The notes below the pieces were generated by a model, which worked only from the letters and a program-made list of their open reading frames with translations, made no database searches and had not been told where the DNA came from. Both the position numbers and the translations under genes were made by a program. This document shows, one piece after another, positions 32,656 to 64,000 of a DNA stretch of 64,000 nt. The stretch covers positions 1 to 64,000 of the forward strand of contig JAVECL010000012.1 in assembly GCA_051942245.1 (NCBI GenBank). Reading direction: 5' to 3'. The first letter of the stretch is position 1. Every line of letters begins with the position of its first letter. The DNA is from Trypethelium eluteriae. Lineage: Eukaryota.

Positions 32656-34413
32656 ATGCCTCGCCTAAATCGGCCACAAAGCGGTACAAATCAAGGCAGG
32701 ACCACTCTCAGCCCACAAGCAAACGAAATGGTAGCAATTACAGATGATCACGACCATGACACTTCAGCTCCCGGAAGCTCTTCTACGGCGGCACCTAAAC
32801 CTGAGGATCACGAGAAATCCCTAACCCGTGCTGAGGCGTTTGAAGGAATCCGCACCGCAATCAATGAAGAATATAGCCTTATGGAGCGTTGTGAGGAAAT
32901 GGAGAAAGAGGCTAAGTCACGAGTCTCGGAAGAGGATACTTCTTCACTCGAAAGAGACGTTATGTTAAAGAAAGAGCTGGCACGGGTCTTCTCCCACATC
33001 GAGCAAGTTCAGAAGTTAGGTAACCTGGTTGGCCTTGCCCGCTTTGGGGTCACGCCGTATTATTATGGGAATCATTTGAAGCCAGTGATGGACCGAGTGA
33101 AGCAGGGGCTCGCGGAACTGGAAGCACGTAAAGAGCACGTAGAATTCGAGTTGGAGAAGCAAGTGCAAGACACAAGGAGAAGGCCGAGTACGCCAGGCAC
33201 ACGAGAGGACTTTGATTTAATGAGACATGTCAAAGAGCCAATTCCGCAAATGAGGGACGAACCCCCAAATGGGTCACCATTGACTGGCAGAAGGTCTCAA
33301 TCACCTAATGGCAGAGCTGAGGTATGTAGCAAAAGAACGTAAATGATGAAGGTGCAGCCCAGATTTATTCTGCACTTTCATTTCATCGAGCTTATCGTAC
33401 TGACCGACGGATTTTAGGAAACTGATAAGATGTACTGGCTACCGGAAAACCAATTCAATAAGTTCATAGACAGCGATCGACTCATACGTGGATTCGAAGA
33501 ACAGGCAAACGAGGGATTGAGGCTTGCAAATGAACTGCAGGCTCGGTGTTTACAGCTCGAGCAGGAAAATGATGACTTGAAAGCCAAAAGAAAGCATCAT
33601 GGTGCGGAAACAGATCCTGATCGACTCGTGGAACTGGTGACTCTTCTACTGAACCAGTTTATCAGAGCACTTTCGACGTCGCCTACTTTGGATACCACGT
33701 CACGCCGACAGAGGGCCATCATAAGGCGGCTGAAAGAACTCACGGGTATCTTTTATCCTGGTCAGGACCTGGATGACCTTGTACAGTTTGGACAGTTTTA
33801 CGTTCACTGCCTATCGCCTCCTTCAAGTCCGGAGCCTCCATTCACCACATTACAAGAGGTCGGTGCTCAGGAGGACATTGGAGACGGGAAGAGGAGTCGT
33901 AGCGGACAAGAAAGAAAGGACTTCGGGATCGAAAATGAGCTCGGGATCATGTCAGGCATGTCGAAGAAAGAGGGCAAACGTGCAATACGTGACTCGGATA
34001 TGGAGGATGATGGCCCATCCGCTAGCCGTGCTCGCAACCAACACTCGTCGACACCAATAGATTCGACGTATATGTCAGAAAACGACAGCCAGATTGATAT
34101 GGAAGGCAAATTCTTTGTGCTGAGGGGTGCGCAGCTGGAGCATGAGGCTACTACACCTGACGCGGACGAGACGGCAAACATACCGAATCGTGTGTCAGAG
34201 CCTGCAAAGACGCCGCGTCAGAACGGAGCGAAGCGGAATCATGAGTCTGGAAAATTTGAGTCTGAGTCACAAGAGCGGGACGCCCGTGGCTCCCTGGATA
34301 ATTTGAAACGTACTGCTGACAAGATGGGCCAAAGAGTTGGGGGAGGCGAGATGAACACAGCAAGGCACGACAGATCAAGGTCTTGCTCTCCTATGAAGAG
34401 AGCCTGCAAGTGA
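32656..34413 (+). CDS. Orphan hypothetical protein with coiled coils and disordered termini; intron 33322-33417
   Basis: Two long ORFs (228 and 327 aa) joined in frame by a GTATGT..CTGAC..TTTAG intron. Confidence 0.75.
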
Positions 34414-46848: not shown

Positions 46849-47835
46849 ATACCCCCCAATACCCCATTGCTCCACCCGTCAAGCGATACTACCATTTACC
46901 GCTTGACGGGGTTTGAGTTTCTCTGAAGATCTACGTGGTTGAGGATATGGTTCTGGAGTTCTTGGGTACATGTACATGTACATGTACGCACTCCGTCCGT
47001 GCCTTCTGTACAATGGGTACGATATAAAAAGTCACGAACACCAAGGCTTTTATCGTCACTTTGGACCTCAGCTAAATTACCGTCAACCATTTTTACTATG
47101 ACAATCGCATCACACCACTCTTCTTGGCAAAATCCCTTATCATAGGCAATGGAAAAGTAGAAGATACGAGCAGCTAGCCTCCGGATTGCCTCGCCTTCGG
47201 TCGTGAATGATCAGCCAAAACTTTTCATAGCATCTTGCCACGCACAATGATCAGGAAATTCTTTTAAGGAATTCTGTGTCTCTGGTCATTTACTTTTACG
47301 TTGACCACACCTGGTCAGAGCTGGTACAGGCTTCCGAGATGACGTTCGCTCAAGTCTTGCTCCCTCACAGGCGTTCTGTCATTTGGATGTGTGGATGTTC
47401 GTCCTAATCGTAAATTTAGGCATTGCCAAGGCCATTTTCGGCAGAAGTGAAGCCGAGGCGGTATCTCCAATGCATGGTAAGACATGGCAATGCGTTGATG
47501 TAGGAACTAGGGTTCGTGCCGTCCACTTATCGAACTTCCTATCTAGGTATGTGCGAGTCCATCTCAGAACTCTGAGATATACTCGTCACAAAGAGCGGGG
47601 CTCTTCAATTGGCGAGCCCTCTTTCTCTTCTAGTAGCTCCATGCGAAATATGATAACATAAGTCTTGATTGCCTCTATCAGTCGCTCTGGCGTCGATAAT
47701 CTGCTACTAAATTTTGAAGACATAAGTATCAATAAGCTGTCACAGTCGAAGTCAATCTCGCGGCGGCAACTTTTTTTTCTCTTCCTTTTCAATCTCTTTT
47801 TGTTGACCGTCCTTTAGATTACTTTAAGTTGAATC

Positions 47836-49672
47836 ATGGCAGAAAAAGACCAAACCAGCTCACAAGATGGAAATCACTCATCAACAGAGAAGCCCGCGGT
47901 GGAAATGGGGCAAGACAAGTCACAGCCATTTGCTATACTTGATGGGCGCAATAGTTCAGTCGCTACCGGAGATCAAGTCATAGTTTCGTCGTTGGCCGAT
48001 GCCGATGAGGCCTTAGCCTTTTTGGAAAATCATCCAAGAGCAGCCGAGATAGCTCAAGAAGGGAATGCTATCCTTGAAGATCCGAAGAGATTGAAGAGAT
48101 TACTTCTCAAGATTGATCTTACCATTGCGCCTTTGCTGGCTGCGGTATATTTCCTACAATATCTCGACAAGACGACACTGAGCTATACAGCAGTCATGGG
48201 CCTCAGAACCGATACACGACTTGTCGGACAGGATTATTCAAATCTGTCCATGCTGTTCTACATCGGTATTTCAATCTGATATCTGGTCGGTGACTGATTC
48301 ACAAGGCACGAAGTTGACCAAGATCGATAGGTTTCCTTGCAACCGAATTTCCCACCCAATACATCGCTCAACGTCTCTCACGTCTTTCACTGTACCTTGG
48401 AGTAAACATCATGATCTGGGGTGCTGTATTGGCATGCCATGCCGCGTGCCATGACTTTGCTGGACTCGCAGTCTGCCGCACCTTACTCGGGGTCTTTGAG
48501 TCTTGCGTTGCGCCCATTCTGGTTCTGATTATTGCCATGTGGTACAAAAAGGCCGAGCAGGGGCGCCGCGTATCGTGGTTTTATGTCTGCAATAGTTTGA
48601 CGCAGATCGTGGGGGGTGGCATTGCCTACGGAGTGAGCTTCACCCACAGCAAGTTTGCAAGTTGGCGCATTTTCTTTGTGGCCATCGGAGTCGCAACCAT
48701 GGTCATAGGTGCAATGGTTGCACTCTTCCTGCCGGACAGTCCGGTCAAAGCCAGGCGTTTTACAGATGCGGAAAAGGTTGCGGCTTTGATGAGGGTTAAG
48801 GACAACCAAAGGTGGGGCTTTTATCGGCCTATTTTCTGTTGCATCAGCTGATATTTTGGGCTCAGTGGCACTCAAAATGCGCATCTCAAACGTGACCAGA
48901 TCTTTGAGACTTTCAAGGATGTTCGTGTGTGGCTTGTGTCTCTCTGCACGATACTTGGATCGATTCCGAATGGGGGAATTAGCAATTTTTCTTCGATCCT
49001 CCTGACCACATTCGGTTATAGCTCTCAACAGGCGCTACTGATGTCAATGCCCACGGGAGCCATTGGCGTGGTATTCGTGATTTTATCTGGTTGGCTCTCA
49101 GACAGATGGAGGGACCGCTCATCGTATGCAGTCCCGCTTCCATCGTTACTCACCTTCTGCTACACAGACTAACTCGGACGTGGCGTAGGGTCATGCTCAT
49201 TTGCATTATCCCGACGATCCTGAGTGCGGCTTTGATGATTGGTCTTGATCCTAATGGCCAACCACGGAATAGAGCGGGTCTTCTCGCTGCTTCTTTTCTG
49301 AGCGGAACATTTGGGGCATCTTTCATGCTTTTGCTGGCATGGAATGCTTCGAATATCGCCGGACACTCCAAAAAAGTCACGGCGAATGCTTTGACCCTCG
49401 TCTCTTTTGCCGTAGGGAATATCCTTGGGACGCAAACCTTTCAGAATAAGCAAGCTCCTGGATATATTAGTGGCAAGATCAGCATCGTTGCTACGCTTGC
49501 GGCGCTCTGCTTTGCAATCCTCGTCTTGAGATTCCTGAATGACAGACTGAACAGGAAGAACAAGAAGAAACTCGCAGAGATGGGTGAGGATGAAAAGGAA
49601 GTGTTGAAAGAGAAAATGGCTTTCGCGGATCGGACGGATAGGGATAATCCTTTCTTCGTCTATACACATTGA
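47836..49672 (+). CDS. MFS transporter, allantoate permease (DAL5 / anion:cation symporter) family; introns 48266-48330, 48812-48865, 49124-49188
   Basis: KIDLTIAP, LQYLDK, MWYKKAEQGRR, LPDSP, IPNGG, NIAGHSKK, AFADRTDRDNPFFVY. Confidence 0.94.
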
Positions 49673-49930
49673 ATATGAAGATGATCGCGTATGAATTAAG
49701 CCCTTCTCGTTGATCAAGACGAACCAGGGAGATTTGTCTGATTTGCAAAGTGATGCTTTCGCTGTACGGAGTAGAGCTGAGTGAACGGAGTACTAGGTAC
49801 CTAGGTAGAGTAAACAATGATGTCACAACCTCGGCAGAGCTTCGAGAGGGTGAGTCCTTGTCGTTCAGATTGTTGCAAAAATCTCCATCCTGCTGAAGAA
49901 AATGCCACTCCAAGTTGCTATCTCCTGATC

Positions 49931-50377
49931 ATGCTGCCCTCCAAGTCCCCTTCAAGACCTCGAACCGGTCCCCAAATCCCACAAATTACGCTCAATCACC
50001 AACAGACTCGCGCGTCACAGCACTTTAGCCTGGAATCCCCATCCATCGCCACGAACCAGGCTCGCCCTCTGCCCCATCTCTATGAAAGAACCACCTCTCG
50101 CCCCCGTTCACAGATTGATGCGCTTCCTCCAATGGCATTTGAGGCGCCGGTTTCACCCTTGTTAGCTGGGTCCCCAGCACAAGTATATAACGCCTCGATG
50201 AGACACCCAGTCTTCTTCACGGAGCGGCTTCGTAAGCCTCCCTTTCAACTACCAGGTGGCGCTGCCGATTTACTAGGTGGAAGAGGCGCATCTGCTGCAA
50301 GGAGCCCGTGTGCGGAGGGATATGTATATGAAGAGGGAAGAAGCATGGGGATCCGAGGCTTGGAGACGAAGCTATAA
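49931..50377 (+). CDS. Small Pro/Ser-rich hypothetical protein
   Basis: ATG in ATC ATG context within a 186-codon ORF that fills the gap between the permease and UBA1; no family recognised. Confidence 0.5.
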   Translation: MLPSKSPSRPRTGPQIPQITLNHQQTRASQHFSLESPSIATNQARPLPHLYERTTSRPRSQIDALPPMAFEAPVSPLLAGSPAQVYNASMRHPVFFTERLRKPPFQLPGGAADLLGGRGASAARSPCAEGYVYEEGRSMGIRGLETKL

Positions 50378-50737
50378 CAAATGACGAGCCTGAGGATTGA
50401 TGACGGTAATGATGCATACGAAGTCTAATGGGGCGGCTATTTATTGGCATTCGTGGCGACTGGCGTTCACAGACAATAGATCCCATCGAGAGCTACCACT
50501 TGAGAAGAGGTATCTGCAGAAGATAAACTCATGGGCTATTTCGACCTATATTTTGCTCGATTTCATTGTCCTCATTTTATGCTAATGTGCTCCACACGGG
50601 GCACTATCTATCCAGTAGTATCTGCCAATTTACAAAGCAAACATGCTGTCTCAAAGTTCCATTTTTGTGACCTAGCAATTGCCCTCAGAATCGTTGAAAT
50701 GAAGCAGCGAGTGGGATTTGGTTCTTCCATTGCAGGC

Positions 50738-53700
50738 TTAATCCCTTAGTTTGAGCATGACGTATGGGATCTCGACATCCTCTTCTGACTGATCCTCGGC
50801 AGTGATCTCGAAAATGACGTTCTTCTGGTGATCCGGAATCTTCTTCTTGCTAATGGTTTCGACCAGCTCGCTAAGTCTGCATCAAGAGTAAGTACGGTCT
50901 TTTGCTTGAGGGATTTGAGGTTGTGGGTAAGAGTAGATAACGTACTTTAGGGGCAAGCGGTCCTTGAGTTTACTGGGTGCATAAAAGCTCGCATAGAGCA
51001 AGCTGACACCACTCGATACCATTGTGACATTAAGCCCCTTTTTATCGAAGTCGTCAAGAAACTCTTGCAACGTCACATTCGTCACCTCAAATCGATCCCA
51101 TAACTTGTCAACGATTACTTCACCATTCCGGCCCAAATACTTGCCTTTGGGGCTAGCAATTGGCTCGCTGAAGCCGAAAAAGGGGAGAGCAAGATTGACG
51201 AAGCCATTTTTGTATTGCTCAATGTCAGTCTTACCATCAATGAGCTTGAAAAGTTCAAGTACGACGAGACCCGTAACAAGCGCGGTGGTGGTGGCAATGG
51301 CAGGAATAATCTTGCCAGCGATGAACTTGGTCTTGTGACGATCTGCAGTCGCAATTTTGTAGTTTTCTGCGCGCAGATTGCTTGCTGCTGTGATAAAGTC
51401 AATATGGAAGTTTGTGTCATCATCCTTTTCGAACTCGACGGGCTCCAGCTTGAAACCGGCCAGAGATTTGGGCGGTGGCAGGGTGTCAACAATTCTTTGG
51501 AGCTCGTCGTTGTCGCCCGCGGGCTGGCTGGCATTCGGATCCGGCTCTTTATCATCGGCCTGGATCTTGACTCCTGGATCTGGCTTGAAGTCTGGAATGA
51601 TCATGTTTTCAAGTACCTTCACGAATTGCTCTTTGCTGGCGTCTTTGGGATTTATATTGTAGTTGAACGCGTGCAATCTTGCTGCCGCTTCCACAAAGGC
51701 GAAGTGCGTGAAGTTCGAGGGATCAAATTTTAGTGGATCTGGCGCACGTTTGGGGCCAGACCAGAAGGGCTGCCCACTGGAGGTCTTGGAGTCCTTGGGG
51801 AAATTGTAAAGTAATTGTTGAATGGCATTGTTGTACTGCTTCTCGAATTGGTCGCGTGCCCACACTATGCAGTCATCAAACGTCAAAGGTTTCTCCGTCA
51901 CAAGAAAATCTCGAAGAGTCTCTAAAGTCTGCTTCTCGTTTCCAGATTGCTTCAGTGCAGTGCCGAGATAATTGGGTTGGGTAAGGTACAGGTTGACAAC
52001 TTCAGGTGGGCCAACGAAGTAGCTATGGAAGAGATCCTTGGCCCACGCAATTGTGTGCTCAATCCGGTTAGGAAAGCTGCGAAGTGTACACATGGGGAAT
52101 GACTGCTCTGGCGGATCCTGAGAACTTGAATAGGACTCGGTAATCATCGGCAGCACAACTTGTGAGTTTGCCTTGGTTCCAAGAGTACCGCTGTCCAGCA
52201 AAGGTTTGCGGAAGAATACGCATCGGCGGTCGACATACGTTCTGGCATCGACGTTGTCTAGAGCGTTCGTGACAGCATCCAGACGACCCCAAAACTCCTC
52301 ATCGAAGACGTGCTCTGTGTCTGGCCCAACGCGGTCTTTCAATGACACGATCTTGCCTTTGAGCTCAGGATTCATCGCCTGGACGGCTTTTGCAGCACAC
52401 TCGCTCTTCAATTGGCCCACATCATTTGGTCTGAAGAGAAATTGTCGATTCAGGTTGCTCCGCTCAATTTGATCCATGTCAGTTATGGTAATGCTGCCTT
52501 CCGGTCCTGTACCCAGACCAATCATCGCCCAATTCTTGAGCATTTCACATCCAATGGCACCGGCGCCGACCAGAAACTGTTTCATATTCGCAATTTTGTC
52601 CTGGAAGTCTTTACCAAAAACTGCAAGCTGACCATCATATCGCGTGCCTAGCGGTTTGCACAATTCCTCGGACCGCTCGAATGTTGTTGGGAGGGACTCT
52701 AGCGAGTCAAAGTAAAGCCATTGCTTGATTGGATGAAACTTGCCCGAGACGGACTTCAGAACTTCCTGGGCAGCGAGACCTCCGAAAAATGCGGCCATCG
52801 GACTGAGATCTCCTCGTGCTTGGTAGCTGAGTTCGGTGATTATTTTCTCGTCGAGATCCACATTTTCCTCGCCTTGACTTGCCAGAGCTTGCGCAATTTT
52901 CAAAACCTCGGACGTATCGCTAGCATTATGTGGTCTCGGTAACTCTCGTCTGTGCTCTTCTGCAAACGCGTGCAAAGCCTGGAATCCAATGTGCAGTTGT
53001 TGAGGTCGGTCAAATTTCGCAAAGTCGGACATCATGAGCTCAGGCTTCTTCAGTTGCGTCCTCAGCGGCTCAAAGTCAATGATCTTGGGCATCTTGACTT
53101 GAGTATATAAGCCACCTCGCTTGTACTGGCCGAGGCCGGTCACATCACCTATCGAGAAAGTGTAGGGTCCCTTGACAGTGATTTTCCTTGGAGCTGTATC
53201 GTTGAGACCTTCCATACCTTCAAGTTCCGAAAAGGTCACGAAGTCACCGTCCTCCAAGCCGTGCCTCGTTTCATCTAGCGCTGAGACAAGACCCTCTGAA
53301 TCTATACCAGCCACGATGCCGCTGCTTGGACTTTCTCCATTAGGATCTCCACATGTAAAATTCTTTCCAAAGTCAGTAAAGACTGTTCCAAACAAGCCGA
53401 ACGTGTCGGTGATGACGACATATATGCCATGCTGATGGCAATAATCTGAAATGGCCAGTTGGTCTTTCAAAGGAGTGTCTGTGAGGACTACGACTTGGTA
53501 CTGACTGAGCTGGCTAAGATTCGAGCTCAGGTTGTCGGAAGGATGGACAGTGACAGGCACGTAGGGGTTGAGCTCCGAGACTCTAGGTGCCGTGGCTTTT
53601 GCTCTGGGAAGGCCGACGTCGCTTGGATGGAGGAAAAATTGAGAGGAGAGGTCCGATATTGTAGCAGGCCTTGGGTCGTATAGAGTTAGTGACTTCACAC

Positions 53701-53911
53701 CAGCAAGAGCGACGTTTTTCGCGATTTCGACACCGAGACCTCGCAACCCGACGATGAGAATATTTGAAGAGCCCATGCGCTTCATAGCCTCATGACCCAG
53801 CACGTAGAGCTGCCTGCTATACAGAGACTCATCGATCTCGCCGTTTGCGCCCTTGAGCTGCTCGGCAACCGCAGCTGGTCCTCCGTCAATCTGCATCTTG
53901 TTGTCCGTCAT
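50738..53911 (-). CDS. UBA1: Ubiquitin-activating enzyme E1; intron 50877-50945; first AUG at 53911 with the frame open further upstream
   Basis: [33 protein letters not shown], active-site [25 protein letters not shown]; last exon ends [14 protein letters not shown]. Confidence 0.98.
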
Positions 53912-54660
53912 GGTTTTTTTGTTCGGACTCGCGTCCTCGTCGGAGTGGCGCCTCTTCCCCAGCCTGCCGCTGGCCTCGTGGGAAGGAATCGTGACCGTCA
54001 AACAAGAAGTTCTGGAGTTCGAGTAGAGTAGGAGGCAGTGGAGGCAATGTAGACTGTAGTGACGTCGATAGCTCCACCGTGGCGAGAGGAGTACTCTAGA
54101 AGAGGTTTAAGTGACTCATGTCAAGGAAGACGAAGGGAGGTGGCGTGTGAGACAGGCAAAGGAGTAGACTTAGCAGCAGGCTTGAGGCGACAGGCAGAGG
54201 CAGCTGCGTTGATGACAAAATGGTCCCAAGCTTTGCGTATGATAGTGCCCCGCCACCGCATATAACATAAGGTACTAGGGTGCTGTAACCACCGTAACCA
54301 GGAGCCCACCACACCACGTCCATGTCCGCGTCCTTGAACAACCGAGCAAACACGCTTCTGCTACTCTTCAAAGACCTCGCGGTCGTATGATTCGACCATG
54401 TTTGTCTTGAAGCTCATAACCTTATGGCTGGCTGTTCGACCTCGTTCATGCTGACACGAGGAAGAACCTCCAATCTCCTCATTGAAAATTTCTAGATATT
54501 ATGATAGTTTGGACTATCATCACAAGATAGTGCATTAAGCTTGTTACATGAAGCATTCGATGAGGTCGACTATTACTCTATGCTATGAGAAAAGCCTTCC
54601 TCCATGGTTCTCCATGAATGACTTCATGAAGAGAAGCTGAGAGGTTCCCTAGCAGGCTGA

Positions 54661-54927
54661 CAATTTTGTGCATCTAAATCGCCTGGAAGCCAGGCACTAA
54701 CGATCAAACTCGGCCGTACGGAAGATGAGGATCAAGATATTGAATGTGGATTCATTCACAGTTGAAGGGAATCTGACGGGAAGTTGTCATCTGTCTGCGC
54801 CAACATCTATCGACTAGTCGCGAACCTGGACGACCACACGGACTATCCTCCGCCCCTCAAAAGTGTGGTCAGGGACATTCAGAAGCTTAGCCAGTACATC
54901 GGGCGCAGGGAAGGAGCTTCAGCCTAG
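54661..54927 (+). pseudogene. Possible decayed coding fragment
   Basis: About 88 codons in one frame broken by a single TGA (54763-54765); protein-like composition; no family recognised. Confidence 0.2.
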
Positions 54928-55837
54928 TCTTCGTTCCGAAGCAATAATGAAATCACGATAGCTGAGCCGCTAAGTTGGGCTTACTCTACCAGAAGTCAGG
55001 AATGCGAGCAAGCCAATCGCAAAATTGATAACCCCGGAGCACCGATGGTCATGAGTAAAAGGAGATGAAGAACGACCTATGTCCTATAGAGAGGCCAGTG
55101 CTAGTCGATAAAGTCTACATGTTTTCGGAGTAGCATTTGACCAAATCCAATGGTCATGCTGTGACGAAGAAGGCTTTGTTGATGCTTTGGTCAATTACAA
55201 TACCATGGCTGTCTCAGTTACCACATTTTTCCTACAAGGTGACACGTTTCAAGCAGGACCGCCACAAATTTTGAAAAACCGAATGGGTTAATGACTCCTT
55301 CAGCTGTCCTGCCTCAGATTATGATGAAAAAGGCTAGCCGCGCGAAGCCGTATGCAAGACAGGTTTGGCCCCATCATCTCGATCGGCTTCCGATTAGATA
55401 AGCTTGACATTTTTACGACGCTAATCCCATTTCTCTACTGGCCTATGATATTTTGCCTTGCTAACAACCTGCTTCTTGGACAACCTTTGAATTCGAGGGC
55501 TGATAGTTTTTCTCACCCTGCTCGTCCGAATCAGTCCTCGGAAGTCTCTCTGGGCTGCGAATGCCAGGTAATCTTACCCTTTGCGTCACTATCTCGCCCG
55601 CCATGCCCGAAAAATCACTCGGTAATCTGAGAAAGCGCTCTCCCTATGCCGACTATCCCTTCGACAAGTCGTGGCTATGTATCACAGTAGTAACATTCTA
55701 TGAGTATAAAGGTTTCCGCGTCTTCCGGTATGTAAGTCTTCTTCATGCTGCATGCATACGAACTTTCTATTATCGAAACTTCATTTCATACATCAAGTAT
55801 CTTCTCCTGTCTTCAGCCATTGGCCTAGTTCCTCAAG

Positions 55838-56923
55838 ATGGTGGCCAAGCTTCCGACAACAGTCATGCTCCTATTCTCAGTAGTCTTGGGTGTCGCATTG
55901 CCCACTGCAAGACCCCAGGACGAAAATGTCACTGCAGCTGATATTGACAACCCTGATTTCGGTCCCATTCCTGGTGAATCTTCTTACTACACGAACTACA
56001 CCGGCATTAAGCCTCCTTTCCCTGACCGTTATAATGATTCGGTTCCTGCCAGCAGCAGTGGGCCTCCAGGTCCGGACGATGCTCTCTGGCAAAACCTAGC
56101 TAGCGCGGAGTGGATCGTATACAGATTTTATCAGAAAGGCGTGGAGACGTTTTCGCAGTCTGACTTCATTGAGGCAGGCTTCCCGGCCAATACGTACAGT
56201 CGTCTTATGGAGATAAGAGACAACGAAGCCGGACATTTACGCATTTTCCAAGATGAGATCTCGCATGACTCACTGAAGCCCGGCCCATGCGAGTATTCTT
56301 ACCCATTCACGGACCCCAAATCTTACCTAGAACTCCAAACAATCATTGAGCTTTCCAGCATGGCGTTTCTCACCGGACTCACGCAGACGGCTCAGCTTAA
56401 TTCTAGTAAAGGAGCGCTTGTCGCAGCGGCACAGGTTGAGACGCGTCATGAGGTTTGGTCTCTTATGGATATCTGGAAGACAGATCCCTTTGCTGGCCCG
56501 TTCGACACCTCTTTCCCATATGCCACTGAGATATTACAAGTTACCAACGATTTCGTTATTCCAGGATCTTGTCCGCCCAACAATCCTGTTTACCCTGTCC
56601 CTTATCAGAACCTGCCCCAAATTGAGGCCATCGGCGCCGCCGCCCCTGGAAATAGAATCGAATTGGAGTACCTCAATCAGTCCCACATCCCGGAATTCAA
56701 GACCAACACTGACTATTACGCCGTTTTCTTCCACGGCGTCTTCAATATCAGTGTCCCATATGATCCCAGCACCAACTACACCACAATTCCCTCCGCTTTT
56801 GAGGATACTGGTCTTATTATCGGTGTATTAGCTGATACTCGAGGTGCGCCGACACTTGACAGTGTGGTTGCAGGACCTATGGTCCTGGTACAGAAGCCGT
56901 CGGTTCTGTCTGTTCAATCATAA
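55838..56923 (+). CDS. Secreted ferritin-like (Rds1 / Ferritin_2-type) protein
   Basis: Signal peptide; NLASAEW..FY, EIRDNEAGH, IELSSMAFL, QVETRHE di-iron-type motifs; FVIPGSCP; several N-glycosylation sequons. Confidence 0.88.
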   Translation: MVAKLPTTVMLLFSVVLGVALPTARPQDENVTAADIDNPDFGPIPGESSYYTNYTGIKPPFPDRYNDSVPASSSGPPGPDDALWQNLASAEWIVYRFYQKGVETFSQSDFIEAGFPANTYSRLMEIRDNEAGHLRIFQDEISHDSLKPGPCEYSYPFTDPKSYLELQTIIELSSMAFLTGLTQTAQLNSSKGALVAAAQVETRHEVWSLMDIWKTDPFAGPFDTSFPYATEILQVTNDFVIPGSCPPNNPVYPVPYQNLPQIEAIGAAAPGNRIELEYLNQSHIPEFKTNTDYYAVFFHGVFNISVPYDPSTNYTTIPSAFEDTGLIIGVLADTRGAPTLDSVVAGPMVLVQKPSVLSVQS

Positions 56924-58519
56924 TCCAAAGGGCGTCCTAGCGCAACGGGGCATGGGACCCCGTTTATTGAAAGCATTGAGAGGGTCCTTGATGATATTTT
57001 CGTCAATTTCTGAAAGATATGGCCCTTGGAGCCTTTTCATTCTTCCCTTCAAGCGACTCTACCTCTGTTCTTCATTATTTAGGGACCACCTGGCGCGCCA
57101 GAGACTGTTCTGTGATCCAGTACCCATATTCGCTTCAACAAAGTCATCGTTTTAATACGAAGAGACGTCAAAGCCTTCCTTCTTACCCAGGTTTATCACT
57201 TAGCGCACCTTACTCATAAGATCTATCACGGATGTTAAAAAAGTTCAAGTGTCATCCCTATTTCTTTCATTAGGAGCTCGTGCCTAATCCTTGGTCTTGC
57301 TATTGATAGACTATGAAAATGCGGACCTCCGTTCCATTTGCCAGGGCTTGTGTGAGACTGCATTGTTACAACCGTGATTTCGGGTTCATGTGTCCACGCG
57401 ATATCACCTCTGATGTTAAGAAACTGAAACGATGCCCTCGAAATGTTCTGTTTGAGACCTCGGACCATCGCCGCTGCACTGGAGGTGACAGACTTTGTAA
57501 TCAATGAGTGGTCTAAGGCGCTGCGCAGGGGAAAAAGCGCTCCACATTACTCCTGATAAGTAGCACTTTATCTGAGAATTCTCGAGGTTTACGACATTAG
57601 GGAACCAAAGAAGCTCGGCTCAAAGACCAAGCACGGGCTTCGTCGGGCTGGCCACTGTCTTGAACTTGTCGAGCGCACTTTCAGCTGATTCTAAATTGCC
57701 ATCAAGAACTTTGAGCGCCGGACTGGGAGTGTAATCTTTCAGCAGCAGTCTTGGTTGTTATGTTTTGAGAAGGAAAAGTGGTAATCCTCGTTTCCCGTAT
57801 CGTTTCCATTGGGTGCCTTGACGAATACTGTCCTCACACCCTCTATCCTGACCACATCGGCTGCCATAGGTGGTGCGAATGCTGACTTAACCGTGTCCGT
57901 TTTTCCGAACTCCTGTGATACTACCTGCGACTCTGCTGGTCCAGCAGCCGTAGCGAGTCAAGCATCGAATGTGCTTGCGTCCTGCTTTGCAGGCTAGATA
58001 GTACTCATTACGGCGTCCTTGCTCTTGTATTCGGATGCTATAACCGTACAAAGATTCTGGACATATAGGAGTGCTTCTCACCTGCTGTAGCATAGACGAT
58101 GAACCTGAGCGACTTAGAAGATTGAACTACACCACAGACCTTCCCATTTACAGCAGGCTAGCAACGCCAAATTTACAGGACAGTTGAATTTGCAAGGAAT
58201 TTGTCGCGTTCTCGCCTGAGTTCATTCTGACTATATTTCAGCAATAAGGTATCTATTTTTGCTGAAAATTCGCCGTACCATTTGAGATCGATTTCTTTCA
58301 CTATCGAGCCGTAAATTGGCCTTCAGATCAGACAGTGATATCGTCAATCGACGTGTTTTTCCGAGAAGCTGCTCCAAGGTCTGTCTGAAACGATGTATCG
58401 GGTAAAGTCCATCGAATTATTCGAAGACCTAAAAGCAGACATTTTCATGGCATTAAATGGTGTTGAAAGTCCTGGATAAATGGGCGGTAGATGATTAAGC
58501 GGAGTGAATGAGGACGGCA

Positions 58520-59857
58520 TCAAAAGATCGGCTCCGTTGCTAATTTGACCACATCGAGGGTCACTCCTGCTTTATCGCAAGCCTCGCGAAAGTCAGGTGG
58601 GACTATTGGGTTGGTCACGCTGTAAGTCAAATGACGCAGAAAGGGTGCTCTACCCAAGAGCGTGCAGAGCAGCTGTTGCGCATCATCAAATGGCTTGCAA
58701 TATCCTGAGGTCAGTCGGAGAGCTCTCAAGTTTGGTGGGAAATTTTTTACAGGCGCTCCAGCCTGGTCCAAAATAACGTGCTGTGAGAACAACATCGTGT
58801 CATCTATGGATAATGAAAGTAGTTCCAGGAGTCCATTCAGTTGAAGAGACCACGTGTTGTTCAGGGTGAAGTTAGCACGAAGGCACAGGCTTTGAAGCCA
58901 TGGCTGGTGCTTGCAGATGACATCAATGTACGAGTTCCAATCCTCGGGCAAAATTCTGACATCAGGTGCCATGTATCGACCGACAGCCTCAATCGACAAC
59001 TCCTCTAGCCGACGAGGGAAGGCAAGAATTTGGTTCAAGGCATCGGCCGATAGGCCGCCCCCAAGCCAGTACAATTTCCGGAGGGACGTCTGATGATGAT
59101 GGGATGCGGCGTCAAGCTTGCTCAGAGAAGATGTGGTGAAATCACTGGCGGAGCAACGTCGAATTGTTATTTCTTCAATGCTTGGGATGGCGAACACAGA
59201 TCCGAAGCAACACATGTTGCCAGAATTGTCACCGGAGTCATCGTAGAAAAGCAACGTAATACTGCCTGTTGGAAAACCCCGTTGTTAGTTGCGTCCGCTA
59301 TGTGTCTGTCTGGCGCTAAGGCATGTGTACGCACAAGTCTTCAAATTTGAAAGGCCGAAACCGCATGCGGCGGTCTCCAGCATCGTTTGGATAGGCTTTG
59401 GCTGCTCAGGCTGGCCCATGGCAACGCGATAGGTTCGGAGGTTTACTAGCAACGGAAGAGTGCAGATTTCGGAGTCACTGTCGTCCCAGACTGCCTCCTC
59501 CTCCTCTTCCCATTCCTCGTTCACATCATTCTCCTCGCTTTCCTTGCTGTCATCCTCTACCGAGTTATCTGTATCTCCATAACGAGACTCGATCCAACTT
59601 TGGAATCGATCGACGATCAAGTGTCGTACCCCAGCAGCTCTTTGAGATCTTGTTCGCAACGCTGACTGGAATGCAATGTTCTGTGTTCGAGACTTGATGA
59701 CGACCGTGTTGAACGTTTTGGTTTCTGCGAGCAGGTAGATCCGACGAAAAGAGTACGTGAGCGCCGCAACGTCGATGGGATCGGTGATAGTAGCGCAGAT
59801 CATATCAAGAATCTCGGTAGGCAGATCAGCGATGCCAGTTACGGCTAGGTTACCCAT
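58520..59857 (-). CDS. F-box-like protein with LRR-like C-terminus; intron 59266-59334
   Basis: IADLPTEILDMIC F-box start; repeated LxxL units (NLRTY, NLKTC, SLRKL, RLEEL, NLRALRL); GTGCGT..CTAAC..AACAG intron joins the frames. Confidence 0.85.
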
Positions 59858-61637
59858 GACGGGTAATATCGCTTCTTGAAAGTATTGATAATTCTACTAG
59901 AATAGCACGTAAAGACCGTGGTGTCGTAGACAGCACTCACAAGGTCTTCTTTGCACGCTGCTCGTTGAAAATGCTTGGGCCGGGGCTGTAATTTGAATCA
60001 GCAGCCTTTTCCCCTGATTTGAGATTGTCAGTTCATCCAGCTAGTTCAATCCACAGATTTAGCGTACAGCACATGCAAAGCCGTGAACGATGGCGATATT
60101 GTACTGTGCTTGACACAATTGACCAAGCAGCAAGACGCGAGACACAGCGCTTGTTTCGTTCTAGGGTGAGCATAGGTAAAGAACTCCAGAGTGGTGAGTA
60201 CTCCGTACTCTATCGTAATCTATTCGCACAGACCCGCAGGCGATACTTCACCCTCGAGGTCATCAGGCAAGTCCTGCATCACTTAGTGACTTCTCCGAGA
60301 ATGTGACGTAGCAACAAATCTTAGTGCGTTCAGCTTATCGGATCGACACCACACGGTGAAGGTTTGGAACGAGCCTGTAATCTAGAAAACCGGGTCAAAA
60401 CAATACATTCTCACATGCTAGACTGGATCCTTCCGGCGCTCACTATTCTCAGATGACGTAAAACAGAACACCGTACCATCGTATCGCAACCCTTGTCGGG
60501 CATATCCTAAGCATAATACTATCCAACGAGCACACTTAGAAATCAGAGTATAATGCTAGGCTGGGGGCGGAGGATACAGGACGAAATAGTACTTCTGCCA
60601 CGCTGGCTAGGAGTTTTGGGGTGAACATTTTCCCCCTGACACTTAAAGGTAAATTTCTCACCTCGTGCCAACATTCAGTCCCCCCCCCGGCCATGTGACC
60701 CTCGCCCTTTCGCAAGTGTCCGATCGTATAAGATACGGACGCCGTCATCCCGTGGTGCCATAATAGGTACCGTGGGTACCTAATTAGCACGCAATTTCCG
60801 CCCCGTTTTCTCCTCCCGAACGACTATCGTACTGTACCATCATTGTTTTTCATCACATGAATTTCCAGCACATGTTCCTGAACCTCGACGTTCAATGTTG
60901 TCCACCTCTCACAATCCGGAACCAGCCGTCATGGTCTGCACTGGAGTTTTTGACGCAAGCCTGCCGACGCATGGTTCACGCTCCGACAACATATCGTACT
61001 TTCGGATCAGTAGGGGAAGTATAGGCTTTATTTTAGGTTTGATCTCTGCTTCACCATCTTCACTGCTCTTCTGGCTATCTAAGACTTCCGTACGAAACTC
61101 GTTATCTGACTTTGGGAGGATTTCATACGGGTTGGCCTGTTAGTCGGTGTAGTAGACGGGAGGAGAAAATCTCGAATATTTAACAGTGTCTGATGGTATT
61201 GGCGCTGATCGATTTTGTCCCTACGTCCCGTGTATCCAGAAGCCTTCGAATGGACGTGAAGAGAGGCACGAAGGCGTGACGATAGACTGATAGAAGAATC
61301 CTTCGCCAAGCAGTGCCAATGTTGCCCACGTTCCGCGCAAACTGGACAACCCTCAGTAAGATCTTGGATCCTGATGCCGAAAGCGGGCATTCTTCGTACT
61401 ATGTTATTCCTGGAGCTGGCCCTAAGCGAAAATTCGAGAACGAGCTCTTCGTTCTGATGATTCGTGTTGAATGTTATGGACTTGTACGATAGTCATCACC
61501 TGGATAACACAGGCCACTGAACAAGAGCGTCATCGTCTAATGGCAGGCAATCTCCTATATATGAGTCTGCGCGATAGAGTTGCTGAACCTGAACCTCACT
61601 CGTCGCCCGCTGCTTGGACTTTACAGGGTATTATCAA

Positions 61638-61645
61638 TATATAAG
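61638..61645 (+). promoter_or_regulatory. TATA-like box upstream of the terminal secreted-protein gene
   Basis: TATATAAG about 45-75 nt before ATGs at 61690 and 61717. Confidence 0.45.
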
Positions 61646-61716
61646 CAACGCGTTGTTGTCACTGCTCTTGCGGCGAGAGGTTTCATGTCATGCCTTTCTT
61701 TTTCTCAGTCACTACC

Positions 61717-64000
61717 ATGTCATCTCTTCCTGCTAACCGTCCAGTTTTGAAGGGGTGTATCCTCATGTCAGTTTTCGGACTATTTACCAACCCCATTATA
61801 TCCATCGAACCCCCGCATGTGAACCTTAGCAAACCAATTGCCGGGAAAGAAAACCAGACCTACATCAACTCTCTCAGCAATATAAAAGCCTCTGGGGTAA
61901 CTCAAAGTGGTCAAATAGATACTAACATTACACATGATCTCCGTCCAACCTATTCGGTGTATCAGACTCAATTTACCGAAAGTAGTACGAAAATCCACCA
62001 ATTAGCAGCGACAAAGTCCCTTCGAAATCACACGCAAGATACTGGATATCCTGGTATACTAACAGGTTCTACGACAAACAAGGCCGGACGCCTGATCAAG
62101 ACCGGGGAGGATCCTCAAAATCTTGGTTCAATGACTTCAGCTGTCTTTGATCCAATTGGCATCCCTCCGAATGGCAAAGGCGTGTCTTCGGACCCGAGCG
62201 CATCCACTACACAGCTAATTCCGGAGTCAATCTTCAGTTCTACAAATGCGTCGCAGCACTATAACTCTTCTGGCACATCAAGCTCGGTGCTATCGGCTAG
62301 CATAACTGAAAGCCTTCGAGACATCAGCGATGCATACTATTCTGTAACCAGCGCTGCCAGAAACCCGTCCTCTGTTGCACCCTTCAACAAGTCGCAAGTC
62401 TTTGTTACATCCACGATGACTACACAACCCCCCGGTATCTCTACGGCAGTCATCACCAGTCCTGGACTTTCGAAGAATACATGGATCACAACAACAGATG
62501 GAAATGGGCACTCCACCGTAGTCCCCATACTTGCCGATTGCCACCACTGTGGCCCCACAGGGCGTGGTATTGTCATTTGGAGTTTGCCTCCTCTCCCTGA
62601 AGTCGAGTTCAATTTTCCAAAGTCTCCTAAAATCAGATTACCGAAATTCCATTTGCCGTGTATCAAGCTTCTTGGGATCCATGTCTCCGGAAGTTGTGAG
62701 ACTCCACCACAGAAGGACGAGCCCAGTGACGAAGATTCGCCTAGCAAAACTACTTTACCAGGCAAAACTGCTTTACCACCCACCACTGAGCCTACTTTAG
62801 CAACTAGACCGGCTCAGGCTGTGACCAGCACGGGGTCTCATGCTCAAACTTGTACACAGACCACAGCGACAAATTGCGAAATGCAACTCATTTATGAAGT
62901 CAATAGCGATGGATCTACCACATCTAGCTCGAGATTAGAGGCGTGTTCACCTACTGCTACTTGCTCTGCTCGAGTCGTATCTGAGACAACCTCCACAACG
63001 ACTTCTGAGGCGGTTTGCTGGACACACCACACGGACAGTTTCTTATATAGCTTCATGACTGAAGATGGGGAAGACGAAGGCAATGCTGATGGCGAAGACG
63101 CTGAAGATAGTGCGACCGGTAATGGCGGTGAGACTCCTGAAAAGCGATTTATGCACGCCCGAGCCTATCAAATGGAGAAGAGAATGGGAAAAGGCCATAG
63201 GAAGGGGAAAAGGGGAGGATCGCGTTTCACAAGGACAGCTTTTGGATCGGGAGCGCAAATCTGCCAACTTACCACGCAACTACCGCCTGCAGGCCCACAA
63301 TCCGCATCTGTCACTATTGGCAATCAACCTATAGTCACTGATCTTGAGAAGTTCAATGGACCTGTATATTGGTATGTTCCATCAATGGCGAGCGCTGGGC
63401 AAGGCCAATGTGAGACTGCAACCGTCAGACATTACCCAGACGCCGCGGCTCTTACGGCTCACCCTGTGATTCCCGGCCACCCGAGCTATCATCTTGGCGA
63501 AGATAATACAAATCCAAAGCGGCCATTCGTAAACGTTGATCACGTTTACGAGGTCAAATACCTAGGCGATTTCTTCGATTTGATGGTCGACTCAAATTCA
63601 TTTACTTGCGCACAATTCAATGCTTTCTTCATGGCCACTGATTCGTTGAATCAAAGAGGCGACAAGTCTTTCGCCCGCCTTCAAACCTTGTGGGATCAAA
63701 TTCCTTCTGTTCGGGACCCAAAATTCGCAGGAACGGATTCTGTATTGAATATGTTTAAGGGCAAGGGTTTGGGGGCTCATGAGTGGAAGACGGAGTTCGG
63801 AACCGACGATGAAGCACTCCAGTATTTGAATTTGGTGGCTGCTGCCGTTGACATGACCAACATTCCGGCTATAGCAGCACAGCACCAGCTGAGCAATCAG
63901 GCGGTATATAATGCATTTCTAGGCATCGATACCCTTCTCGCAAATCCGCAGGGTTGCCCTCCTGCACCTCCGCAACCTCCACATGGGTTGAACTGGGCTG
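61717..64000 (+). CDS. Large secreted multidomain protein, partial (runs off the window): signal peptide, Ser/Thr-rich region, Cys/Pro module, Kex2 sites, HNH-like domain
   Basis: Manual translation: frame open from 61645 to the window end with no stop, so it is missing from the ORF track; MSSLPANRPVLKGCILMSVFGLFTNPIIS; sequons NLS, NQT, NIT, NHT, NAS, NSS, NKS; EKR, EKR, GKR; NVDHVYE..LNMFKG. Confidence 0.88.
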   Translation, partial: MSSLPANRPVLKGCILMSVFGLFTNPIISIEPPHVNLSKPIAGKENQTYINSLSNIKASGVTQSGQIDTNITHDLRPTYSVYQTQFTESSTKIHQLAATKSLRNHTQDTGYPGILTGSTTNKAGRLIKTGEDPQNLGSMTSAVFDPIGIPPNGKGVSSDPSASTTQLIPESIFSSTNASQHYNSSGTSSSVLSASITESLRDISDAYYSVTSAARNPSSVAPFNKSQVFVTSTMTTQPPGISTAVITSPGLSKNTWITTTDGNGHSTVVPILADCHHCGPTGRGIVIWSLPPLPEVEFNFPKSPKIRLPKFHLPCIKLLGIHVSGSCETPPQKDEPSDEDSPSKTTLPGKTALPPTTEPTLATRPAQAVTSTGSHAQTCTQTTATNCEMQLIYEVNSDGSTTSSSRLEACSPTATCSARVVSETTSTTTSEAVCWTHHTDSFLYSFMTEDGEDEGNADGEDAEDSATGNGGETPEKRFMHARAYQMEKRMGKGHRKGKRGGSRFTRTAFGSGAQICQLTTQLPPAGPQSASVTIGNQPIVTDLEKFNGPVYWYVPSMASAGQGQCETATVRHYPDAAALTAHPVIPGHPSYHLGEDNTNPKRPFVNVDHVYEVKYLGDFFDLMVDSNSFTCAQFNAFFMATDSLNQRGDKSFARLQTLWDQIPSVRDPKFAGTDSVLNMFKGKGLGAHEWKTEFGTDDEALQYLNLVAAAVDMTNIPAIAAQHQLSNQAVYNAFLGIDTLLANPQGCPPAPPQPPHGLNWA

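Follow-up and report, generated by a model that had tools for sequence, protein, structure and literature searches.

The window analyzed here, a 64,000-nucleotide stretch of Trypethelium eluteriae DNA (positions 1–64,000 of contig JAVECL010000012.1), is ascomycete sequence in which a Pfam scan finds the housekeeping gene neighbors NMD3, Pex12, Lon, and UBA1 together with a Zn2Cys6 factor. At its far end, a plus-strand reading frame is open from 61645 to 64000, where the window edge cuts it after 785 codons (the last full codon ends at 63999). An earlier note on this DNA had reported the uninterrupted frame, and its length confirms the claim: across 1000 shuffled versions of the stretch, no open frame exceeded 230 codons. 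The note had also described the frame as absent from the ORF track; it is indeed omitted there but does get listed once open ends are allowed. A public contig spans 59000–64000 unbroken, with two differences that are both at synonymous third positions, and reaches ≈7 kb past the edge at 64000. On the strength of this contig cover and of the shuffle maximum, we rejected an assembly artefact or a chance frame as an explanation. Residues are counted from 61645 throughout, which makes the Met at 61717 named in the earlier note residue 25.

Several other ORFs of the window deserve mention. A secreted-looking Ferritin_2 domain protein is encoded at 55829–56923 (plus strand), and the ORF at 33418–34413 (plus strand) gives a weak DUF6891 match (E 0.005). 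The divergent neighbor of the long frame, 1.8 kb upstream at 58520–59893 (minus strand), comprises two ORFs in line whose start looks by eye like an F-box, without a Pfam match to it, and which give a weak LRR match (E 0.009). By position only, this neighbor is a candidate for a non-secreted partner or immunity gene; no counterpart of it was seen in the 10 metagenome loci described below.

Translation of the long frame plausibly starts at ATG 61717, which has an A at −3 and is preceded by a pyrimidine-rich stretch and by a TATA-like TATATAAG of putative function (61638–61645, plus strand). A short out-of-frame ORF, MSCLSFSQSLPCHLFLLTVQF (61685–61750, plus strand), overlaps this start region; it is leader-like and may be an upstream ORF or chance. 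From ATG 61717, the product would begin with a putative signal peptide (61717–61803), whose h-region is placed at 61753–61785 by hydropathy. The hydrophobic leader of the earlier note is present as a hydrophobic stretch but is only moderately signal-like, with a best 11-residue hydropathy of 2.25 (residues 37–47) against 2.02–2.81 in six homologs. It is also possible that a further 5′ exon is joined through a branch-site/acceptor-like CTAAC..CAG (61732–61744); the alternative intron would then extend from a weak donor at 61628 to 61744 on the plus strand, and an exon from ATG 61561 is in phase through that donor by manual count. The moderately signal-like leader and this possible first exon without a signal would fit a decaying or non-expressed gene, or a different 5′ end with a non-secreted product. 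We regard this explanation as highly improbable: the 785 codons are intact, every conserved residue is kept, both sequence differences are synonymous, and the homologs start with hydrophobic leaders.

Behind the leader lies a long carrier part. Its Ser/Thr-rich region (61822–62418, plus strand) had been noted for many N-glycosylation sequons, of which we count seven in residues 60–248. A conserved Cys/Pro module follows at residues 259–355 (62419–62709), defined by a family profile with 193 relatives and showing the pattern WITTT..TVVP..CxxC..GIVIW..P..F.FP..LPKFHLPCI..C. The next segment (62710–63039) combines an acidic, Pro-containing linker with a Thr/Cys stalk that holds Cys residues 403, 411, 434, 440, and 458; four stalk cysteines (C132, C144, C169, and C187 of alignment A10) are kept in at least 90% of the 42 rows. 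An acidic spacer (63040–63141), with 14 Asp or Glu in residues 451–500, leads into three putative Kex2-type KR sites at 63142–63147, 63178–63183, and 63208–63213. A fourth KR (63517) is followed by Pro and falls inside the domain behind these sites, hereafter the cargo, which runs from 63214 to the window edge at 64000. The EKR motifs at 63139 and 63175, the GKR at 63205, the DH at 63538, and the N at 63748 all lie where the earlier note had placed them.

Searches with the whole protein returned no Pfam match and no PDB sequence match. With residues 275–785 as query, 14 homologs were found, of which the 11 named ones are ascomycete hypothetical proteins; the closest is from Bathelium (43% over the cargo). 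No relatives of 1375–3925 residues were found, which counts as weak evidence. A profile of the Cys/Pro module, built from seven sequences, gathered 193 cluster representatives at E ≤ 1e-3, and the family is spread over several ascomycete classes that include lichen formers, saprobes, and plant-associated species. Local HMMs were used to classify the cargo after the module in the 150 relatives listed out of the 193: 38 carry a DHxxE domain like that of the window protein, 5 a domain marked GCT..H, 4 a domain marked VEEYPF, and 2 an S8 subtilase, whereas 29 have tails of at least 250 residues without recognizable cargo and 72 are too short to classify. The three small classes are defined by construction because their HMMs came from their own members. 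Variable domains behind one N-terminal module had been proposed before, and the tabulated classes, which are mutually exclusive, agree with that proposal; an invariant C-terminus, which would have spoken against it, is not seen, as the module is followed by any of four cargo classes or by none.

The alternative cargoes differ in how firmly they can be named. The subtilase is firm, with an E of 9.5e-6 to a solved protease and supporting source names; it is the only firmly named alternative and need not be a toxin. In the GCT-x14-H cargo, the G-C-T and the H are invariant in 7/7 rows, and CNF1 was the best PDB match of the profile (E 0.14), with G-C-T and H aligned. The match was lost with two larger profiles, and we therefore rejected CNF1 as an identity and use the label at motif level only, because the match did not reproduce. 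The VEEYPF cargo, for which three of the four matches are partial, has no Pfam match; its label as NucA/NucB-like is tentative. Among 10 metagenome loci with the module, 7 show a cargo match in cis and 3 are without detected cargo. The matches are GCT..H in two near-duplicate pairs (L010/L011 and L016/L017), DHxxE in L014, S8 in L015, and a weak VEEYPF-class match in L018. At L010:2-3463 (plus strand), ≈6 kb upstream of the GCT..H-cargo gene, there are ORFs that by eye resemble a PNP_UDP/NB-ARC fungal NLR, and another unknown ORF (L010:8179-9543) lies directly upstream of that gene. Three Fusarium proteins (P0006, P0040, and P0175) have SGNH-like and fibronectin III domains before the module and the VEEYPF cargo after it.

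How freely the cargo is exchanged can be gauged from a quick tree of the module (90 rows and 95 columns, with many open forks). The best module matches to the window protein, at 46–54%, carry a distant DHxxE subtype, the GCT..H cargo, or nothing, and one GCT..H protein is nested in a starred clade whose other members are DHxxE or cargo-less. Conversely, the best cargo matches that include an N-terminal part (P0003, P0166, and P0167; 30%) bear a different module variant, which the module HMM missed. Different cargo on near modules and different modules on near cargo together indicate that exchange and loss have happened. The cargo labels require 16 changes on the tree, where the minimum is 4 and the mean of shuffled labels 35.5; because the cargo is so strongly clustered, swaps are rare rather than rapid, and the cargo is, as read from this tree, mostly inherited together with its carrier. 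A second module variant (HNTILPIWF..PPPPGFPPL) occurs in P0003, P0166, P0167, and P0170, which have the same stalk and cargo after it. The carrier family is evidently larger than the reach of the Cys/Pro module profile.

The dibasic sites are associated with the cargo at both of its ends. A KR lies 60–200 residues past the module in 38 of the 49 cargo-bearing proteins versus 2 of the 29 cargo-less ones (Fisher p 6e-10, with sequences counted as if unrelated). Of 57 DHxxE-domain proteins found, 32 are long enough to show the far end of the cargo, and in 28 of these it is closed by a KR or RR that is followed by D/E/Q/S/A and by a Cys within 22 residues, an arrangement present in 0 of 32 control windows. 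The cargo is therefore an internal cassette rather than a C-terminal tip in most homologs of sufficient length; the window gene has its own end beyond the window. Among six other-cargo proteins examined, five likewise show a dibasic site and a neighboring Cys behind the cargo, and the gene model of the closest homolog, P0002, is without a closing KR. Past the closing site, the homologs continue with Ser/Thr stretches and then Cys-rich tails. Fungal_lectin_2 scores above cut-off at the C-terminus in 5 of 49 proteins scanned, 4 of which are cargo-less. Kex2 prefers KR or RR behind disordered stretches (PMC8528282). Overall, an exchangeable cassette between predicted Kex2-type sites is well supported. 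The earlier proposal that a cleavable carrier frees an effector gains from the tracking of KR with cargo and needs correction in one respect, in that the cargo is internal and not at the C-terminal tip.

The 57 cargo domains were detected by HMM and selected without use of the motif, and in the rows that cover each site the motif residues are nearly invariant. H633 is conserved in 56/56 and D632 in 55/56 (together 63538–63543 in the window), E636 (63550–63552) in 50/52, and N702 (63748–63750) in 43/45. In a 46-row alignment, a Lys at N+3/+4, represented here by K705 (63757–63759), is present in 42/42, and three cysteines are conserved as well (C540 46/46; C589 43/45; C655 45/45). The conservation of DH, N, and K that the earlier note made a test of its reading is thus found among the homologs. 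The spacing from H to N is long, with a median of 79 residues; the best candidate for an Omega-loop Asn, column 677, has Asn in 27/43 rows and Ala (A677) in the window protein. AlphaFold models of moderate confidence were obtained for the 46 rows (pLDDT 72.5, pTM 0.71) and for the core (pLDDT 63.4). Both place a strand at 629–631 just before D632–H633, and both have a strand at 696–698 followed by a helix at 699–709 with N702 in its first turns. In several homologs (P0041, P0070, P0080, P0114, P0122, and others), the gene models stop at DH(A/S)C-K, which suggests a shared intron just past the DH codons; the window gene reads through without one.

In the His-Me finger superfamily, a His ends the first β-strand, often after D/E/H, and a second strand is followed by a helix with Asn or His in its N-terminal turn (PMC5714182). 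The window protein shows the near-invariant H633 after strand 629–631 with D632 before it, as well as the strand-then-helix placement of N702, and its DHVYE has the DHxxE form of the Tox-HNH-CIDE clade. D632, H633, E636, N702, and K705 are accordingly positioned in the models as His-Me finger residues are. The long H-to-N spacing and the Ala at 677 speak against the assignment, and direct searches for a fold gave no significant match. Foldseek against the PDB and viral models returned nothing at E ≤ 0.001, and we rejected as chance level a viral model named HNHc, which ranked 13th with an E of 3.7. The best VIA structure matches (Z 3.1 and 3.8) were both to unrelated chains, and the VIA re-check of the Foldseek rows gave none at Z 2. 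The longest alignment of the VIA search was to Vibrio endonuclease I (2vnd; Z 2.4, rmsd 5.7, 135 aligned), which was not among the VIA matches of the core model. Pfam, NCBIfam, and PHROGs gave no family for the cargo, one nameless PHROG being matched at E 0.0002 in one of nine rows; not one of 46 members matched an HNH or DFF40 Pfam model at E ≤ 3, and cargo profile A3 retrieved no CAD chain from PDB sequences at E ≤ 10. Pattern scans and tblastn, which reach close relatives only, found no relatives in bacteria, archaea, phages, plasmids, or viruses. Atlas features gave AHH and GmrSD_C clusters at 0.78–0.80 and one all-bacterial cluster at 0.90, the former being leads only.

These results leave room for another or a new fold within the same architecture, whose D/H/E/N/K residues would belong, for instance, to a hydrolase or transferase that needs a metal and targets components of the wall or membrane. 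Every fold search is non-significant, the confidence of both models is moderate, and the further invariant positions outside the motif (N751, 35/35; D762, 34/36) suggest more than a minimal finger. We nevertheless judge this explanation unlikely, as the order of strand and His, then strand and helix with Asn, along with a D ahead of the His and a K behind the Asn, is that of the published definition. His-Me fingers moreover easily escape detection when they are embedded in larger structures (PMC5714182). An hhalign comparison with nine EndA sequences also set DH on the conserved EH of EndA without being forced to do so, with a probability of 0.1% and an E of 0.41 that are not significant. Because neither the five fold searches nor the profile comparison gave a significant match, we word the nuclease call as a prediction: the cargo is probably a nuclease with a His-Me finger fold. 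For the HNH-like domain of the earlier note, this means that the D/H/N/K residues hold up as conserved, whereas a significant Foldseek, VIA, or profile match to a His-Me fold is missing.

The family, the exchange of cargo, the flanking dibasic sites, and the residue conservation are computed results, and beside them we propose a mechanism to which we give about even weight, in which the gene encodes a secreted modular precursor with an exchangeable, Kex2-excised cargo, here a His-Me nuclease that harms a competitor or host cell. The ascomycete precursor would be ordered as signal, Ser/Thr region, Cys/Pro module, Thr/Cys stalk, KR, cargo, KR-x-Cys, and a Cys-rich binding tail. It would enter the secretory pathway and be glycosylated, and in the Golgi a Kex2-type protease would cut both at the KR cluster and past the cargo, freeing the cargo at its two ends. 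The conserved cysteines beside both cuts may then tether the cargo to carrier and tail until the target surface is reached, by analogy with zymocin, whose subunits are tethered by a disulfide (10.1101/2024.10.25.620242). The tail would bind glycans on that surface. In the predicted active site, H633 would be the general base, with D632 and N702 holding the metal and K705 the phosphate, and the nuclease would damage nucleic acid of the rival or host cell. No immunity gene was found, and no neighbor was shared between the 10 loci and window positions 47001–61600 or among unrelated loci, a weak negative with most contigs short; an enzyme kept within the secretory lumen could make an immunity gene unnecessary.

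A toxic role, supposing that the cargo is a nuclease or another enzyme, seems to us slightly favored. The same processed precursor with a real His-Me nuclease could instead serve outside the cell as a non-toxin, either tethered to the wall or released, that degrades extracellular DNA or RNA to gain phosphate or clears DNA traps or biofilm matrix. The subtilase cargo would suit such a function, the slot then holding scavenging enzymes, as would the SGNH/fn3 N-termini of P0006 and P0040, a weak resemblance to endonuclease I, whose family is secreted, and the lack of both an immunity neighbor and, in the Pfam scan, a recognized translocation domain. On the other hand, DHxxE marks a toxin and apoptotic clade in the literature (PMC3482391), the GCT..H cargo would need an intracellular target if it is a deamidase (a weak point), and excision at two ends together with a lectin-like tail would fit targeting better than bulk digestion. 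We consider the scavenging function somewhat unlikely. The toxic reading can be extended to a chitinase-independent polymorphic toxin system of ascomycetes, in which module and lectin-like tail clamp a Kex2-excised, disulfide-held warhead that is delivered into rival or host cells, and the gene described here would belong, as the first from fungi, to the DHxxE (CAD/DFF40-related) nuclease clade. We offer this extension tentatively, as falling short of an even chance, and the warhead types that it would comprise (an HNH-CIDE-like nuclease, a CNF1-like deamidase, and a NucA/NucB-like nuclease or a protease) are tentative jointly with it.

Swappable-warhead toxins are a bacterial paradigm, and the known parallels in filamentous fungi depend on chitinases; the family described here may be a fungal counterpart. 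The family is unannotated, with no Pfam entry and members named hypothetical, though it is spread over several ascomycete classes. No description of it was found in the full-text literature, mostly exclusive of subscription papers, and the supplementary alignments of PMC3482391 could already list fungal members. The sequence rule of module, KR, cargo, and KR-x-Cys offers a way to find new fungal enzymes and effectors with exact boundaries, and even as non-toxins the proteins would define a domain family and an architecture of secreted proteins that are both new. In PMC3482391, Tox-DHNNK is listed for fungi, and the Tox-HNH-CIDE clade, marked by DHxxE, is listed for bacteria and metazoa but not for fungi; if our assignment is true, it would place a DHxxE-type nuclease in fungi.

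Among nucleases, the cargo resembles Tox-HNH-CIDE in its DHxxE motif and Tox-DHNNK in its DH..N..K (PMC3482391), but no sequence match to those families was detected. Similar to endonuclease I/Vvn (PF04231; 2vnd), it belongs to a secreted-looking protein, contains cysteines, and has an acidic residue and His after a strand, followed by a long helical Omega insertion and an Asn with a basic residue beyond it (PMC5714182); elaborate Omega insertions are described for CAD, Vvn, and endonuclease I (PMC5714182). It differs in having HxxE in lieu of HxxP, and the similarity in sequence, profile, and structure is not significant. As in K2PP effectors, a disordered acidic stretch ending in KR (KR/RR/LxxR in that group) precedes the predicted mature domain. 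In contrast to those effectors, the part ahead of the cargo is ≈500 residues long here and includes a stalk and a conserved folded module, and in most long homologs the cargo is closed by a second site.

The zymocin-like clusters and C-II chitinase–Hce2 fusions of Pezizomycotina resemble the proposed system in being secreted fungal conflict proteins whose carrier binds carbohydrate and whose nuclease or effector varies (PMC13556262). Neither GH18 nor LysM was found in the 49 members or the window ORFs scanned, and with GH18 absent from the window protein too, we rejected an identity with either. Carrier and cargo are here one chain, unlike in the zymocin-like clusters, and no γ-toxin/immunity cluster is seen in the window. 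The likeness to bacterial polymorphic toxins is a constant trafficking part joined to a variable enzymatic domain that is freed by proteolysis (PMC3482391), and the family does have a constant part and variable domains in one slot. The route, in contrast, would be the eukaryotic secretory pathway with host Kex2 in place of a built-in protease, neither an immunity gene nor orphan cassettes are seen in the 10 loci and the window, and the cargo lies internally between two cut sites, closed in 28/32 long homologs, rather than at the C-terminus. Because the variable domain is not at the C-terminal tip and an immunity partner is putative, we do not file the family as a member of the polymorphic toxins. 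We describe it as a new family that, on its sequence features, works like a polymorphic toxin in its constant carrier and variable processed domains, with toxicity putative.
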